Virus record (IMG/VR): IMGVR_UViG_2740892273_000013 | Length of the DNA: 39,288 bases | Source: a virus | Lineage: Duplodnaviria; Heunggongvirae; Uroviricota; Caudoviricetes | Direction: 5' to 3' (one strand) | In this document: positions 2,539-14,978 of the stretch, piece after piece | Numbering within the stretch: the first letter of the stretch is position 1 | Layout: each line of letters opens with the position of its first letter | The notes under the pieces: model-generated | What the model saw: only the letters and a program-made list of their open reading frames with translations | What the model was told of the DNA's origin: nothing | Database searches by the model: none | Position numbers and translations under genes: made by a program

Positions 2539-3363
2539 TCAGGCGGTGAAAGTACCAATAAAGGTTTCTACTTTGCTGTCTTTGAATTTCTCAACAAGCA
2601 GATCACGAAATTCGTTAGCCATTTCTTCCTGTACCGCTTCCAGCTGAATAATGCGCAGAACCAGTACAGGACGATCGCCAGTGATAATGCTGAGGCGTAA
2701 TTTAAACGGACGTTCTTTCAGACCTTCAAACGGAACGCATTTAAATTCAAATGCCACTGGCATAATGTCTTTGGTCTTCGCTTCGACAGACTCCATCAGG
2801 GAGCGTTTGCCGCTGAAGTCATTATCTTCAAAATCAGCGGTCTGGTTCGCTTCAATTGTGATTTTACGGATCGCCGCAGCCGCTTTGGTTGCCTGAATGG
2901 CGTCACCATTAGCATCAAAGCCCACAAGGTAGTCGGCCCAGTCTTCAATCCATTCTGCCAGTGACTTCTGGGAGTTACGCTCGCCATTAACAGACAACAG
3001 AGCAGAGAACGGAGCTGTCTTTTTCAGTTTGAGAGTGGCGGTGTTATCTGCGTGACCTGGTTCATCAATAGTACCCAGGTTAAGAACACTGACGGCACGC
3101 ATATTATCAGCATCGATAAAGCAGCGGGTGCCTTCATCTGCAAGATCTTTAGAATAACGAGTAAAGTCATCGATGCTGGCAGTGGAAAGCGCACCACGGA
3201 AACGGAAACGATTTAAATTTAATTTTTCCAGATCATGAATGCGGAAATTCTCAGGCAATGCCACAGCATCGGCACCAATCTTACTGATAATTTCATTAAC
3301 ACCCTGAGCAGAAATAAGGGCATGGATTTGATTAATTGCGGTTGCGTCTAAGTTCTGAGACAT
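2539..3363 (-). CDS. DUF2303-like (YfdQ-family) phage protein
   Basis: 274-aa ORF with GAGGA 9 nt upstream of ATG; family assignment recalled from memory (length matches YfdQ), unverified. Confidence 0.55.
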
Positions 3364-3428
3364 AATAAGTCCTCACTATATAAAGATATTCAGTGATGAG
3401 ATAAATAATCGGTTAATTAAGAACGATA

Positions 3429-3791
3429 TTAATGACCTGCTGCGCGGAGTTTTCCGTCAGGTTCACCGGCAAGAGTCAGTAATTGTCCCTGGTCTTCCTG
3501 CAGAATAGTCAGGCGACCACCGCGATTGACATACATCGGCGTTTCGGTGGTGTCTTCTTCGGAAATTTTCCCGCGGTTAGTCGGGCGAACATATGAGAGT
3601 TTGTGTTTGATTTTCACACGGTTCTCATCAAATGGTTCGATTTCCAGGTTGAGTGAGACCTTACCTTTGGTTTTCGTGTTCATCACACCGGAAGCGACTT
3701 CACTGAGAACTGCGCCGATTTTGGTTTCAAATACGCCGCCGTCCAGCTCCCCAATAAATGCCTGCACATCAGTACTGCGTTCGCTAGCCAT
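3429..3791 (-). CDS. Hypothetical 120-aa protein (possibly YfdP-like), first gene of the leftward early operon
   Basis: ATG at 3791 (MASERS...) with AGGAG 8 nt upstream; the longer track ORF to 3977 crosses a structured leader and is unlikely to be translated. Confidence 0.5.
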   Translation of the reverse strand: MASERSTDVQAFIGELDGGVFETKIGAVLSEVASGVMNTKTKGKVSLNLEIEPFDENRVKIKHKLSYVRPTNRGKISEEDTTETPMYVNRGGRLTILQEDQGQLLTLAGEPDGKLRAAGH

Positions 3792-3840: not shown

Positions 3841-3938
3841 CAAAACAGAGAAGAACACCTGCGGTGGCAGCCGCCCGGATGGATTTGGTTATGAGCCCGT
3901 CGTCCGGTGATGCTCTTCTCTGTTTTGTAAAAAGAGCG
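3841..3938 (-). promoter_or_regulatory. Structured leader element: boxA-like motif followed by a large stem-loop formed by a 14-bp perfect inverted repeat; candidate nut-like or attenuator site
   Basis: Minus-strand CGCTCTTTTTACAA (3925-3938); arms CAAAACAGAGAAGA (3841-3854) and TCTTCTCTGTTTTG (3914-3927) are exact reverse complements. Confidence 0.35.
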
Positions 3939-4411
3939 GTACCAGCCGGAAGCAAGTGTACAAACTGGTACCGCCAAAGCAGTGGCTGTTGTGGTGACCG
4001 GTGCTGATCTCCGGCTTGCGGTTATTTCAGACTCTCACGGGCGTTTAATTGCCCCGCCGAACAGCTCTTTTCCGCATTAGCTGCAATGTCTTTCGCGCAT
4101 CAGCCTGCGCATTCACCACAACGCTGAGAGCACTTAGCCAGTTACGGCACCACACTTTGTCGCGGTTCCATAAATGTCCTCATCGTTGCACCCTGGTCTC
4201 TTCCCAGGCGTCAAACCGAATCGCCACGCTGGTTAGGCGTCTTATCAGCATCATCATTGACTTGCACATTCCGGCTACCTGGTTTGTTTGCCCGAGCAAG
4301 GAGTGGATTGTCCCCTTTAACGTCCCCAGACCGCTAACGACGCATGTGCCATACGCCGTGTTACAACCAAATTTTGTTTAATCTTGCCTGTGCTGTGTTT
4401 CTTTTAGATAC

Positions 4412-5474: not shown

Positions 5475-6038
5475 ATGAGGCTAACCGTGGGTAAGCATCA
5501 CTGGAAAGTAGAAAAACAGCCTGAGTGGTACGTGAAAGCTGTCAGAAAAACTATCGCGGCGTTGCCGGGGGGTTACGCTGAAGCTGCTGAGTGGCTGGAT
5601 GTAACAGAGAACGCTTTATTCAACCGCCTTCGTGCAGATGGCGATCAGATTTTCCCGCTGGGATGGGCAATGATTTTACAGCGCGCGGCTGGCACTCACT
5701 ACATTGCGGATGCTGTCGCACAGTCTGCTGGTGGGGTGTTTGTATCGCTTCCTGAAATTGAGGAAGTAGAGAACGCCGATATAAACCAGCGCCTGCTGGA
5801 AGTCATCGAACAGATCGGGAGTTACTCAAAGCAGATTCGTTCGGCAATCGAAGATGGGGTAGTGGAGCCACACGAGCAGACAGCAATTAATGATGAGTTG
5901 TATCTGTCAATTTCGAAGCTCCAGGAGCATGCAGCACTGGTCTACAAAATCTTTTGCGCTCCAGAAAAGAGTGACGCCCGCGAGTGTGCAGCTCCGGGCG
6001 TCGTGGCGTTTTGTGTCTGTGGAGAAACTAACGCATGA
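5475..6038 (+). CDS. YdaT-like or CII-position early regulator (hypothetical)
   Basis: 187-aa ORF directly after cro; family name recalled from memory and unverified. Confidence 0.4.
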   Translation: MRLTVGKHHWKVEKQPEWYVKAVRKTIAALPGGYAEAAEWLDVTENALFNRLRADGDQIFPLGWAMILQRAAGTHYIADAVAQSAGGVFVSLPEIEEVENADINQRLLEVIEQIGSYSKQIRSAIEDGVVEPHEQTAINDELYLSISKLQEHAALVYKIFCAPEKSDARECAAPGVVAFCVCGETNA

Positions 6039-6871
6039 ACAGTTTAACGGCAAATAACCGTTTGTCGCAACAGCTGGTGGTCAGCGTCGCTGAACACCTG
6101 TTGTTACGGCATGAATGCAGATTACCAAATCACCTGGCTGTAAGTAACCACAGAGAACTTTACCTGACTGTGGGGGGCGAGTTGTGCAGGAACTTAACCG
6201 CTGGTTTCGTGACGGAAGAGGACTTTATGTTCATGTTATTCGTTGGGAGCCAGAAACACAGCGCGTTATCTATCTTCGCAAAGACTACCCGCATGAGTGC
6301 TTTAGTCCTTTGTGGAAATTCAGGCGTGATTTTGTTGAGTGTGAAGGACCACCAGCACATTGATTCTGCCATTCCGGGACGTTACACTGTTCAGGCACCT
6401 TATAAAGCGGGTGCCGGGATTGGCGTCCTGGAATTGATCAAGGCGATATATGACGCGCCAGCGTCTTTTTTATCGTCCGCATTTGCTCACATCAAAGTTA
6501 TGGTGGGCTGGGCGGGGGCATCGAAAGATGCGCCGGTTTCCTTGATCACCGGTTACGCCAACCCCGTTCAGTTCACCACCAGCGAAATTGGCGTTTCCGG
6601 TGGTGGAAGTATTTCACCGATCAAGGAGGCTGCCATCATGGCTACTGTCCCAGCCCTCACTCGTCTGAATGATGAAGACTTACATAAACTCAGTTATGTA
6701 ACAACTGCACTACGTGCTCTGCGCAAGGTAACTCTTTCGGATCCGCAGGCACATCAGGTTCTGGTAGAAACCCTTCTTAACTTGCAAGCTGAACGTATTC
6801 GTCTGGCGGATAAGGCTAATTTTCATATTCACCGTCTCCTGAATATCAGCGGAGGGCATCGTCATGCTTAA
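6035..6871 (+). CDS. Hypothetical protein (278 aa)
   Basis: ATGA overlap with upstream gene suggests translational coupling; no recognisable motif. Confidence 0.4.
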   Translation: MNSLTANNRLSQQLVVSVAEHLLLRHECRLPNHLAVSNHRELYLTVGGELCRNLTAGFVTEEDFMFMLFVGSQKHSALSIFAKTTRMSALVLCGNSGVILLSVKDHQHIDSAIPGRYTVQAPYKAGAGIGVLELIKAIYDAPASFLSSAFAHIKVMVGWAGASKDAPVSLITGYANPVQFTTSEIGVSGGGSISPIKEAAIMATVPALTRLNDEDLHKLSYVTTALRALRKVTLSDPQAHQVLVETLLNLQAERIRLADKANFHIHRLLNISGGHRHA

Positions 6872-11607: not shown

Positions 11608-12360
11608 ATGAACCTTGAAGCCTTACCAAAATATTACTCCCCAAAATCTCCAAAATTGAGCGATGACGCACCGGCGACAGGCTCAGGTGGTTTAACGATT
11701 ACGGATGTGATGGCTGCGCAGGGGATGGTGCAGTCGAAAGCACCGCTTGGGTTTGCCTTATTCCTGGCAAAAGTTGGTGTTCAGGATCCTCAATTTGCGA
11801 TTGAAGGTCTGCTCAATTACGCGATGGCACTGGATAACCCGACATTGAACAAATTGAGTGAAGAAACCCGGTTACAGATCATCCCTTACCTTGTGAATTT
11901 TGCCTTTGCTGATTATTCCAGGTCTGCGGCAAGTAAGGCTCGCTGTGAGCATTGTGCTGGTACTGGATTTCATAATGTATTGCGCGAAGTGGTGAAACAC
12001 TCCAGAAGCGGGGAATCTGTTATCAAGGAAGAGTGGGTGAAGGAACTATGTCAGCATTGCCATGGTAAGGGAGAAGTCAGCACAGCGTGCAGAGGGTGTA
12101 AGGGTAAAGGTATTGTCCTGGATGAAAAAAGAACCCGGCTTCATGGTGTGCCTGTTTATAAGATTTGTGGGCGTTGCAATGGCAACCGGTTTAGCCGTTT
12201 ACCAACCACACTGGCGCGGCATCATGTCCAGAAACTGGTACCGGACCTGACGGATTATCAGTGGTACAAAGGATATGCAGACGTTATTAATAAACTGGTT
12301 ACAAAGTGCTGGCAGGAAGAAGCGTATGCTGAATCGCAATTGAGAAAAGTGACAAGATAG
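11608..12360 (+). CDS. Q: Late-gene antiterminator Q
   Basis: 250-aa translation with multiple CxxC zinc-finger motifs; located directly before a late promoter and short terminated transcript. Confidence 0.75.
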   Translation: MNLEALPKYYSPKSPKLSDDAPATGSGGLTITDVMAAQGMVQSKAPLGFALFLAKVGVQDPQFAIEGLLNYAMALDNPTLNKLSEETRLQIIPYLVNFAFADYSRSAASKARCEHCAGTGFHNVLREVVKHSRSGESVIKEEWVKELCQHCHGKGEVSTACRGCKGKGIVLDEKRTRLHGVPVYKICGRCNGNRFSRLPTTLARHHVQKLVPDLTDYQWYKGYADVINKLVTKCWQEEAYAESQLRKVTR

Positions 12361-12391
12361 ATAATTTTCGCCGAAGATGTCGACGTGATAC

Positions 12392-12420
12392 TTGCATTTT
12401 TCAAAAAATATGGATAAGAT
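12392..12420 (+). promoter_or_regulatory. PR'-like late promoter (qut region expected here)
   Basis: TTGCAT (12392-12397), 17-bp spacer, TAAGAT (12415-12420), about 60 nt upstream of a strong terminator. Confidence 0.5.
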
Positions 12421-12467
12421 TTTCTCAACGATGGGCCTTGTATGTCTACCGTTGGTAAATGTCAAAA

Positions 12468-12490
12468 ACCCGCCGCTGAGCGGGTTTTTT
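12468..12490 (+). terminator. tR'-like intrinsic terminator
   Basis: Stem ACCCGC / GCGGGT with loop CGCTGA followed by TTTTTT. Confidence 0.7.
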
Positions 12491-12648
12491 GTGCCTGATG
12501 TCTCATGAAACTATGAAATGGATTGGTGCGTTAAACATTTTTTCTTATTATCTTTTAGATTTTGGAGAGATGGTTAACGTCTGTATTCCAGAAACTCGAT
12601 GGTTATTTAATAAATTAGTTTCAATGATGCTTCTAGGTTATGACTGTA

Positions 12649-13065
12649 ATGAAAAAGGTATTAATAGCAGCGATAGGTTTTTGTTTAGTTGGTTGTGCAG
12701 GTATGAAATTACCTGAGTATTCGCAAGTTAAAGCAAGTCCGTATTATACAGATTGCCGTGCGTTTGCCATGGATGTTTATAAAAATGATGGATACAGCAA
12801 AATTGCGAAAACTACTATCCTTAGCATGGATGATGTGAAAGCTAGATATATTGTGACAGGGTGTGTAGTTGCTATGGGGAAAAACACTGTAGAGGAAATC
12901 AAAGCTGATCTCTCTGCTAAAGGGAGTTCTTTTGGGCTTATCAGTGGAGCTTGTTCTAGTGCGGCATGTCGGGTTGATGTAGAGCAGCAAATGAACGCTT
13001 ATGTACTTGGTAGTTATTATGCTGCAAATAAAAAATTCCCGGATAAAATGAAAGCAGAGTTTTAA
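12649..13065 (+). CDS. Lipoprotein of unknown function encoded by an AT-rich inserted gene
   Basis: Signal peptide with lipobox LVGC (MKKVLIAAIGFCLVGCAG); AT-rich codon usage; flanked by two near-identical terminators. Confidence 0.6.
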   Translation: MKKVLIAAIGFCLVGCAGMKLPEYSQVKASPYYTDCRAFAMDVYKNDGYSKIAKTTILSMDDVKARYIVTGCVVAMGKNTVEEIKADLSAKGSSFGLISGACSSAACRVDVEQQMNAYVLGSYYAANKKFPDKMKAEF

Positions 13066-13143
13066 GCAAACCTTGTTTTCGATTATATGTCGAAGATAAA
13101 TGTTAGTAACGGCATAATAAGTAAATATATAGCTGTGATAGCA

Positions 13144-13166
13144 ACCCGCCACTGAGCGGGTTTTTT
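13144..13166 (+). terminator. Second copy of the tR'-like terminator
   Basis: ACCCGCCACTGAGCGGGTTTTTTGT, near-identical to 12468-12490. Confidence 0.65.
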
Positions 13167-13288
13167 GTACCCGTAAACTTGGTGCAGTACAGTAAACACG
13201 CTGGTGGTCGTGAATACTGACTTTTTATCTTGCTGGCTTTTTAGACAAGAGTTATTGGTATGTCATGTTAACCAGAAGGGAAAAAGAC

Positions 13289-13492
13289 ATGCTAAAACAG
13301 CAAGATATGACAGAAACCGCCGCCGCAGTCCTTCATTTCTTACCTGCTGACAAGTGGGTAACGCCACGCATGATGACGAGAACTACCGGAGTAAGCGAAG
13401 CCCGGTGCCAGTTAATACTGACTCAGTTAGTTCTGGCGGGTCTGGCGAAGGATAACGGCGGGTACGGGAATAAATTCAGACGCTGCCAGTAA
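13289..13492 (+). CDS. Small putative winged-helix DNA-binding protein (67 aa); alternative start at 13265
   Basis: AAGGG before ATG at 13289; helix-rich translation; lies upstream of the methyltransferase gene. Confidence 0.35.
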   Translation: MLKQQDMTETAAAVLHFLPADKWVTPRMMTRTTGVSEARCQLILTQLVLAGLAKDNGGYGNKFRRCQ

Positions 13493-13642: not shown

Positions 13643-14695
13643 ATGAAAAATACTGTAAAAATAAACAGTGTTGATTTAATCAACGCTGATTGCCTGCATT
13701 TTATTCAGTCCCTGCCTGATGATTCCATTGACCTGATTGTTACCGATCCGCCTTACTTCAAGGTGAAACCCAACGGTTGGGACAATCAGTGGAAAGGGGA
13801 CGAAGATTACCTTAAGTGGCTGGACCACTGTCTGGCCCAGTTCTGGCGGGTGTTGAAACCTGCCGGAAGCCTTTACCTGTTCTGTGGGCATCGCCTGGCA
13901 TCTGATATTGAGATCATGATGCGTGAACGTTTCAACGTGCTTAACCATATCATCTGGGCGAAGCCGTCCGGACGTTGGAATGGGTGTAATAAAGAAAGTC
14001 TGCGCGCATATTTTCCTGCCACAGAGCGCGTTCTGTTTGCTGAACATTACCAGGGGCCATATCGCGGCAAAAGTGACGGCTATGCGGCAAAAGAAAGGGA
14101 ACTCAAACAGCACATAATGGCACCGCTGATATCGTATTTCAGGGATGCTCGTGCCGAACTGGGTATAACGGCAAAACAAATTGCCGAAGCCACAGGTAAG
14201 AAAAATATGGTTTCCCACTGGTTTGGTGCCAGTCAGTGGCAGTTGCCGAATGAGGCTGACTATCGGAAGTTACAGGCACTGTTTTCCCGTATAGCGGCAG
14301 AGAAGTTTCAGGAACAACAACTGGAACAACCACACCACCAGCTGGTGGCATCTTATGATTCACTGAATCGTAAATATTCTGAATTGCTGGATGAGTTTAA
14401 ATCTCTCCGGCGCTATTTCTCCGTATCAGTCTCCGTGCCTTATACCGATGTCTGGATGCATAAACCCGTTCAGTTCTACCCGGGGAAACATCCGTGTGAG
14501 AAACCGGCGGATATGCTCAGGCAAATAATCAATGCCAGTAGTCGACCAGGTGATCTGGTTGCTGATTTTTTTATGGGATCCGGTTCCACAATAAAAGCAG
14601 CAATGGCGCTGGGGCGTCGGGCCTTAGGTGTTGAGCTTGAGTCAGAGCGGTTTAATCAGACAGTGAAAGAGATAAACGAGCTGGTGGGGAAATAA
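13643..14695 (+). CDS. DNA methyltransferase, N6-adenine/N4-cytosine type with motif order IV then I (orphan)
   Basis: DPPY near the N-terminus and FxGxG (FFMGSGST) near the C-terminus; no adjacent endonuclease. Confidence 0.7.
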
Positions 14696-14701
14696 TCTGG
14701 T

Positions 14702-14727
14702 GGCCACGTCAGGTGGCCTTTTTATTT
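14702..14727 (+). terminator. Intrinsic terminator after the methyltransferase gene
   Basis: GGCCAC-GTCAG-GTGGCC followed by TTTTTATTT. Confidence 0.6.
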
Positions 14728-14762: not shown

Positions 14763-14978
14763 ATGAAATCCATGGATAAGTTAACAACGGGTGTCGCCTA
14801 TGGCACCTCAGCAGGTAGTGCCGGGTACTGGTTTTTACAGTTGCTCGATAAAGTCACGCCCTCACAGTGGGCGGCAATAGGTGTGCTGGGTAGTCTGGTA
14901 TTTGGCTTGCTGACGTATCTGACAAACCTTTATTTCAAGATTAAAGAAGACAAGCGTAAGGCTGCACGGGGAGAGTAA
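14763..14978 (+). CDS. S: Pinholin (phage 21 S21-like), 71 aa with dual-start M-K-S-M
   Basis: Translation [31 protein letters not shown]... closely matches S21 as recalled from memory. Confidence 0.85.

Follow-up and report, generated by a model that had tools for sequence, protein, structure and literature searches.

Here, we analyzed a 39,288-nucleotide stretch of tailed-phage DNA (IMG/VR record IMGVR_UViG_2740892273_000013, hereafter referred to in its entirety as the window) and found that the late-operon leader of this lambda-like E. coli prophage, which is of the mEp460/PhiR type, carries an AT-rich 676-bp cassette (12491-13166, plus strand) that encodes a small lipoprotein and is bounded by two nearly identical transcription terminators. 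The interpretation that we favor, at a probability of about 75%, is that the cassette is a moron, that is, a self-contained foreign gene unit which is autonomously expressed and which has spread by way of its terminators. (The moron concept itself is reportedly due to Juhala and Hendrix.) The window is 97 to 98% identical over 24 kb to the lambda-like phages PhiR55_1, PhiR40_1, PhiR47_1, and vB_EcoS-569R4, and its structural genes match those of mEp460 and Ayreon.

The initial annotation of this DNA described a terminator hairpin at positions 12468-12490 (ACCCGCCGCTGAGCGGGTTTTTT) that recurs at 13144-13166 (ACCCGCCACTGAGCGGGTTTTTT) with one base of the loop changed. Direct inspection bore out both sets of coordinates and revealed that a G/A exchange in the loop (12475 and 13151) is the sole difference between the two hairpins. 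Through a repeat search, we found that the similarity extends over 29 nt (12467-12495 and 13143-13171, spaced 676 bp apart), of which 27 are identical; the second mismatch falls just past the T-run. A 26-mer from the repeat, allowing up to 3 mismatches, occurs exactly twice in the window and was matched in none of 100 dinucleotide-preserving shuffles of it, so the alignment of the two copies and their flanks points to a likeness beyond that of any generic hairpin. As RNA, both copies form a GC-rich stem of 7 to 10 bp with a 6-nt loop, followed by U6, with folding energies of -13.9 (copy 1) and -13.3 (copy 2) kcal/mol and z-scores of -2.8 and -2.3, respectively. In copy 1, the hairpin occupies 12467-12486 and the T-run extends to 12490; annotations of Ayreon and SfV place a terminator at the equivalent position. 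Copy 2 (hairpin and T6 at 13143-13166) closes the cassette directly upstream of a module comprising an orf47-like gene and a methylase gene and supplies the cassette gene with a downstream terminator of its own, as is expected of a moron. A search of positions 12300-13300 against Rfam gave nothing above chance.

Beyond the T-run, the two copies diverge. Copy 1 continues as GTGCCTGATGT, which resembles the corresponding sequence of SfV (GTGCCTTGATGT), whereas copy 2 continues as GTACCCGTAAACTTGGTGCA, which resembles vB_EcoM-720R4 (720R4) and PhiR55_1; indeed, 720R4 and PhiR55_1 have the same terminator and right flank as copy 2 ahead of their orf47-like gene. Because the right flank of copy 1 is SfV-like and that of copy 2 is 720R4/PhiR55_1-like, the pair looks like alternative alleles of a single terminator that were joined by recombination between phages, rather than the products of an in-place duplication. 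The earlier proposal that the duplicated terminator marks an insertion is upheld, in that the repeats mark the edges of an insertion (SfV and 720R4 lack the intervening 676 bp), with the refinement that the copies do not appear to have arisen by duplication in place.

The stretch between the terminators was also described at the outset as AT-rich and gene bearing, and this proved to be correct. In 200-nt windows, GC content is 31 to 43% between the copies and 45 to 58% on either side. Overall, the cassette is 36.0% GC and contains an open reading frame (ORF) whose coding sequence is 38.6% GC, compared with 47.3% for the upstream antiterminator gene (Q), 47.9% for the methylase gene, and 50.3% for the window; such a distinct composition is typical of morons. 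Further evidence comes from relatives in which the site is empty. SfV and 720R4 showed homology to the 1-kb region around the cassette at its two ends only, and their annotated gene order is Q, a single terminator, orf47, orf48 (the methylase gene), and holin. In a four-way alignment, both phages were collinear with the window on either side of a gap, as far as the hairpin on the left and from the start of the T-run on the right; the missing sequence measured exactly 676 bp, which is one period of the repeat (the register of the cassette is arbitrary within the repeat). Among collinear relatives, then, SfV and 720R4 have no cassette, and PhiR55_1 carries other cargo in its place.

Filled sites resembling that of the window were found in several groups of phages. 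Identity over the 1-kb region amounts to 97.4% for mEp460, Ayreon, and 15 phages that convert their hosts to production of the Shiga toxin (Stx) variant Stx2c, and to ca. 97% for phiSTEC1575-Stx2k and PhiR47_1. Of 5,426 complete E. coli genomes, 214 (ca. 4%) contain at least 80% of the region. Across 42 E. coli-type loci in IMG/VR, the cassette invariably lies behind the same Q (96 to 100% identical), and every contig that spans the site matched both terminators, with the exception of four loci whose upstream copy failed the strict pattern. The sequence beyond the cassette is variable and holds orf47 and the methylase gene, tRNA genes, or stx. The Stx2c phages have the arrangement Q, tR', lipoprotein gene, terminator, orf47, methylase gene, and stx2cAB; in the Stx2k phage, the cassette lies ahead of tRNA genes and stx2. 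The suggestion that the junction between Q and the lysis genes is a site for cargo is thus well founded, since in both Stx2c and Stx2k phages the cassette stands between pR' and stx2, and in PhiR55_1 the slot is filled by a different lipoprotein gene.

Comparison with Salmonella enlarged this picture. Salmonella prophages encode a lipoprotein with 76% identity to that of the window, again between Q and the lysis genes. However, Q is of a different family there (DUF1133, with a weak match to Phage_antitermQ), and the lysis genes differ too. The stretch of homology between the Salmonella and E. coli sequences opens with the upstream hairpin, whose stem and loop are shared (CCCGCCACTGAGCGGG), and stops ca. 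12 nt past a related downstream hairpin (CCCGCATTGCGCGGG-T5-GTATCCGAAAC). The upstream hairpin is 88% identical between the two even though synonymous sites in the lipoprotein gene are near saturation (proportion of synonymous differences [pS], 0.68). Because this identity persists despite such divergence, the hairpins are both under selection and the limits of the shared module. In one Salmonella enterica prophage (locus L005, ca. 5560-5810), the methylase gene past the cassette is reduced to its 3′ part (ca. 71% protein identity to the enzyme of the window), and its 5′ end and the orf47-like gene are deleted.

A different occupant was found in PhiR55_1 (PV340571.1). This phage, otherwise ca. 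97% identical to the window, has a different antiterminator of the lambda Q family (121 aa) with its own terminator, and its slot holds an unrelated, AT-rich gene for a 148-aa lipoprotein (lipobox ISGC; phrog_3152, function unknown). The gene (1511-1957 of locus L064, minus strand) runs opposite to the late operon and is followed by the copy-2 terminator and right flank. Given this arrangement, the interval from tR' to the terminator ahead of orf47 can be regarded as a cargo slot for autonomous genes in either orientation. Because SfV and 720R4 have an empty site with the same flanks, and because the Salmonella cassette stands behind a different Q with its homology bounded by the hairpins, the 676-bp cassette is, as judged by these alignments, a mobile, terminator-bounded moron. 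It would have spread among phage late leaders by recombination inside the short, conserved terminator sequence.

The lipoprotein gene (12649-13065, plus strand) specifies 138 aa. The frame is open from 12640, where there is an in-frame ATG that is not conserved among homologues; the ATG at 12649 is conserved. The product is identical to mEp460 gp51 (AFM76088.1), and its exact sequence is present on at least 1,000 contigs. Its N terminus (MKK-VLIAAIGFCLV-G-C) has the positively charged n-region, hydrophobic h-region, and lipobox (LVGC) of a lipoprotein signal, with the signal peptide MKKVLIAAIGFCLVG preceding the lipobox cysteine, Ala at position +2, and a mature protein of 123 aa that includes four further conserved cysteines. 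The lipobox had been named correctly in the initial annotation. Among 8 homologues down to 55% identity, its G-C pair is invariant (positions -3 and -2 vary, being S-T in one case), and position +2 is Ala (Ser in one); the four other cysteines and a C-terminal K-x-E-F motif are likewise retained. Relative to the Salmonella homologue, the proportion of nonsynonymous differences (pN) is 0.12, and the ratio of nonsynonymous to synonymous substitution (dN/dS) is 0.075. This pattern of substitution shows the gene to be genuine and under purifying selection. The protein is predicted to be lipidated, cleaved by signal peptidase II, and sent to the outer membrane, with a disulfide-bonded domain in the periplasm.

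Two other ORFs in the interval were rejected as genes. One of these, a 75-aa frame overlapping the start of the lipoprotein gene (12489-12716; phrog_37626), is broken by indels in the leader when the E. coli and Salmonella sequences are aligned; the other, a 147-aa antisense frame (12709-13152), lies opposite a coding sequence with a dN/dS of 0.075. The best promoter-like match in the region is also antisense and lies inside the lipoprotein gene (12743-12770, minus strand; ATGGCA-16-TATAAT, 10 of 12 consensus positions), where it is probably a by-product of AT-richness, although it may give rise to an antisense transcript.

AlphaFold2 modeled the lipoprotein as an all-alpha protein, a five-helix bundle with a short hairpin (predicted local distance difference test score, 84; predicted template modeling score, 0.79), for which no fold relative was found. 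Searches of Pfam (E ≤ 1), NCBIfam, and PADLOC yielded no credible family, and all PHROG matches were to groups of unknown function (phrog_4748). The family is tiny. A word-indexed search of 5.8 billion proteins returned 11 clusters, all unnamed, and an exhaustive profile search of 1.84 billion representative proteins gave only 8 hits. The sole match in a profile search of PDB sequences, uL14m (E value, 0.04), was judged to be spurious. We found no description of the gene in the literature on mEp460, on morons and lipoproteins, or on Stx2c and pR'. The homology search thus placed relatives of the protein in Salmonella, Serratia, and other elements but linked it to no family with a name or an assigned function.

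Several of these relatives lie outside late operons. In Serratia fonticola and related strains, chromosomal homologues with 56 to 62% identity (2998-3435 in loci L061 to L063; 2944-3417 in S. bockelmannii locus L060) are flanked by emrB and yfiF/trxC or neighbor pip and ftnA, and the 6-kb loci contain no phage genes; such chromosomal copies may represent a nonphage source of the family. One enterobacterial prophage encodes a homologue in its early-left region, near kilR and the exonuclease VIII gene, and another element encodes one where the lysis genes run on the opposite strand. Since homologues exist outside late operons, the protein presumably works without one and must have its own promoter in these settings. 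No promoter motif common to the upstream regions of all homologues was found, as the contexts of the homologues are independent. In one IMG/VR phage and in a Buttiauxella replicon resembling a phage-plasmid, the homologue is followed within ca. 10 nt by a gene for a second, unrelated lipoprotein of 99 aa (L056, 3428-3727, and L006, 5446-5745; phrog_7666, no Pfam match), which suggests that both contigs hold a two-lipoprotein module. Neither this 99-aa partner nor the lipoprotein in the PhiR55_1 slot could be accepted as a relative of the window protein, as the resemblance is limited to the signal peptide.

Expression of the cassette must be viewed against the promoter that precedes it. Upstream lies the gene for the late antiterminator Q (11608-12360, plus strand), a relative of lambda Q with an inserted DnaJ-type zinc finger. 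Q matches Pfam family PF03589 (Antiterm; E value, 5e-54), including a DnaJ_CXXCXGXG stretch, as well as phrog_127 and the solved structure of lambda Q (7UBM; E value, 3e-37). It aligns with lambda Q at residues 1 to 120 and 160 to 250, and the CxxCxGxG zinc-finger segment (ca. residues 146 to 193) is scored by Pfam as a DnaJ central domain. The promoter described earlier as PR'-like is real. This pR'-type late promoter (12392-12435, plus strand) has a -35 hexamer, TTGCAT, at 12392-12397, a 17-nt spacer, and a -10 hexamer, TAAGAT, at 12415-12420, followed 6 nt further on by a pause element, AACGATGGG (12427-12435), that is identical to the sigma70-dependent pause-inducing element of lambda. The lambda promoter (TTGACT-17-TAAATT-TGACTC-AACGATGGG) aligns with it column for column, and the region is retained in alignments of Ayreon, SfV, and 720R4. 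The transcript probably starts near 12427. Copy 1 of the terminator lies ca. 40 nt downstream of the promoter and, since its hairpin and U-run come just past a lambda-like pR' with a pause element and beside Q, it is the predicted tR' of the window phage. Transcription from pR' is constitutive in lambdoid lysogens and is stopped at tR' (PMC7547250). By analogy with lambda and the Stx phages (PMC7547250), we infer termination at copy 1 in the lysogen and Q-dependent readthrough there; the terminated RNA would be ca. 64 nt long.

We propose the following model. In the lysogen, transcripts from pR' would end at copy 1, and the lipoprotein would be made from a weak promoter inside the cassette, for which the only candidate is a sigma70-type match, TTGGTG-17-TATTAT (12523-12551, plus strand; 8 of 12 consensus positions). 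Its Salmonella counterpart (TTGGTA-18-TATCAT) matches at 9 of 12 positions and was listed by the promoter scan. The leader has conserved islands, within which both hexamers fall, against a background of 60% identity between E. coli and Salmonella. Copy 2 would shield the lysis genes from transcription initiated within the cassette. After induction, Q-modified RNA polymerase would pass both terminators, so that the lipoprotein would become the first and most abundant late product and, in the Stx2c and Stx2k phages, would be cotranscribed with stx2. Following export, the protein would be lipidated at Cys16 and, given Ala at +2, sorted by the Lol pathway to the inner face of the outer membrane, where its disulfide-stabilized helical bundle may bind a component of the envelope.

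What the protein does there is a matter of conjecture. A candidate role is that of a lysogenic-conversion or exclusion factor. That it protects the lysogen, either by blocking a receptor or by neutralizing a toxin that acts in the periplasm, is the role that we consider likeliest, although it is a guess that is less likely than not to be correct; searches by homology and fold gave no evidence for a specific function, and no solved member of the periplasmic immunity and inhibitor proteins (type VI secretion system amidase immunity proteins and lysozyme inhibitors) showed similarity in fold or sequence. More broadly, the 138-aa protein (mEp460 gp51, phrog_4748) could conceivably found a new family of envelope-acting lysogen-protection proteins (for superinfection exclusion or toxin immunity), with a fold not represented among solved structures, an origin in a Serratia-type chromosomal gene, and spread among enterobacterial phages by terminator recombination, whose member in the Stx2c and Stx2k phages is the first product of the Shiga toxin transcript. 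This is a speculative proposal, which we consider appreciably less likely to be true than false.

Certain observations weigh against the interpretation of the cassette as an autonomous, terminator-spread moron. The promoter scan of the window did not list 12523-12551, and an 8-of-12 match is easily given by AT-rich DNA. The second terminator could have been kept as a backup for tR' or as a scar of recombination, with no internal promoter at all. The predicted sorting to the outer membrane follows from a single rule, that for position +2. Finally, gain and loss cannot be told apart for any given lineage; a deletion across the direct repeats would restore an empty site.

The main alternative is that the lipoprotein serves a dedicated late-lytic function, has no promoter of its own, and is made as the first late product only when Q antiterminates pR', with the second terminator acting as a backup tR'. 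The protein would then have its effect at the time of lysis or afterward, perhaps by masking the phage receptor on debris so that progeny are spared (as does Llp of T5) or by tuning disruption of the envelope. Consistent with this, the gene is oriented with the late operon and lies past pR' and ahead of the lysis genes, scanning of the leader gave no strong promoter, and every E. coli and Salmonella prophage locus examined has the gene in the interval from Q to the lysis genes; moreover, the late leader contains further terminators in any case, such as that at 14702-14718. We regard this alternative as rather unlikely. Homologues occur in Serratia chromosomes, in an early-left prophage region, and in an element with oppositely oriented lysis genes, which shows that a late operon is dispensable for the protein. 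The gene also accompanies at least three unrelated lysis cassettes and hence is not bound to one lysis system, and E. coli and Salmonella have both retained a terminator downstream of it despite near-saturated synonymous sites.

A second alternative concerns history rather than function. It may be that the filled state with two terminators is ancestral, and that the direct repeats gave rise to a deletion that left SfV and 720R4 with a single terminator. Direct repeats of 29 to 37 nt on either side of 650 bp are typically prone to deletion, the empty sites are short of exactly one repeat period, and the copies in different phages show reshuffled loop and flank variants. On the other hand, the cassette is compositionally foreign (36% GC versus 47 to 50% in the flanking genes), the gene family is found in unrelated genomic contexts, and the slot of PhiR55_1 holds unrelated cargo, so that acquisition must have happened at some point. 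We therefore consider an ancestral filled site improbable, somewhat more so than a late-lytic role. Nevertheless, loss by deletion is probably frequent as well, and the insertion and deletion views are compatible. The most skeptical explanation, which holds that the repeat is a chance likeness of generic GC-rich hairpins and the ORF a chance frame in AT-rich DNA, can be considered refuted. It is true that intrinsic terminators resemble one another, that AT-rich DNA is poor in stop codons in some frames, and that the 147-aa antisense and 75-aa overlapping frames are open too. However, the identity at 27 of 29 positions takes in the loop and 5 nt past the T-run and is reproduced by no shuffle, whereas the ORF combines a dN/dS of 0.075 at a pS of 0.68 with a lipobox and cysteines that are kept down to 55% identity and a confident structural model.

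As an autonomous moron, the cassette can be compared with several known systems. Examples of morons in lambdoid phages include HK97 gp15 and lambda bor and lom (PMC3594210). Like these, the window cassette is an extra gene of deviant composition that is absent from collinear phages, has its own terminator, occurs in unrelated contexts, and occupies a late-operon slot. Unlike them, it has a promoter that is only presumptive, and both of its edges are formed by the same terminator, one copy of which doubles as tR'. These shared edges give an unusually clean view of the recombination joints. The stx genes of 933W and Sp5 (PMC7547250 and PMC6266700) lie in the same slot, past pR' and tR' and before the holin gene, and expression by Q-dependent readthrough would be expected of the window cassette as well. 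Indeed, the Stx2c and Stx2k phages combine a cassette of the window type with stx2 at one junction, although the cargo of the window is a small lipoprotein and not a toxin. The predicted pR'-tR' RNA (ca. 64 nt) also differs from StxS (258 nt, processed to 74 nt), to which it is unrelated in sequence. Lambda itself has the same promoter architecture at pR'/6S RNA/tR', an identical AACGATGGG, a homologous Q, and a nearby downstream terminator; the differences are that the terminated RNA of lambda is 194 nt long and that the window phage has a zinc-finger insert in Q and a second terminator copy 676 bp further on. With respect to the product, Bor (lambda), Cor (phi80, HK022, and mEp167), and Llp (T5) are outer membrane lipoproteins encoded by phages. 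The window protein is likewise a small lipoprotein that is carried by a phage as accessory cargo and predicted to reside in the outer membrane, and a comparable action on the envelope is plausible for it. However, it shows no sequence similarity to them detectable with Pfam (E ≤ 1), PHROG, NCBIfam, or PADLOC, and it is modeled as an all-alpha bundle with two likely disulfides.

Downstream of the cassette, the resident module begins with a small winged-helix-like ORF homologous to orf47 of SfV (13265-13492, plus strand; phrog_331, with weak MarR and TrmB matches), which is found in phages with empty and filled sites alike. It is followed by a gene for an N6/N4 DNA methyltransferase homologous to SfV orf48 (13643-14695, plus strand; PF01555, E value of 2e-42; PADLOC MTase_II, E value of 3e-152). 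A third terminator-like hairpin of the late leader was located by a terminator scan at 14702-14718 (plus strand), in the interval between the methylase stop and the pinholin gene (14695-14718), and is annotated equivalently in Ayreon and SfV, so that Q-modified polymerase has at least three terminators to traverse on its way to the lysis genes. The lysis cassette starts with a phage 21-type pinholin S of 71 aa with an MKSM dual start (14763-14978, plus strand; PF04971, Phage_holin_2_1, E value of 4e-35). Next come a DUF1327 protein and a 177-aa endolysin (a homologue is annotated as “lysozyme R”), which we read as being of the SAR (signal-anchor) type from its hydrophobic N terminus.

The early region of the window contains further candidate RNAs. 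Positions 3936-3965 (plus strand), probably extending to ca. 4120, reproduce the 5′ portion of sRNA-17 exactly and are unrelated to the cassette; sRNA-17 is a 193-nt, ArcA-modulated small RNA from an mEp460-like prophage of E. coli K1 RS218 (PMC7719688). The Hfq-binding RNA isrK (6395-6471; 64 bits) and the adjoining C4 antisense RNA (6496-6583; 82 bits), both on the plus strand, scored above the Rfam gathering threshold. In Gifsy-1, IsrK is reported to control an anti-Q protein (PMC4825925), and a similar layer of control over Q may therefore exist in the window prophage.

The locus provides a clean and checkable example of how cargo moves between lambdoid phages, since filled, empty, and differently filled versions of the same site are available for comparison. 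In it, a terminator of 29 to 37 nt would act at once as a transcription stop, an insulator, and a recombination joint. In toxin-converting phages, the cassette lies directly upstream of stx2c or stx2k, yet it is annotated everywhere as hypothetical. If the lipoprotein does nothing measurable, then it is a routine moron; if, on the other hand, it does alter phage susceptibility or the resistance of the envelope, it would rank as a new factor for lysogenic conversion in pathogenic E. coli.

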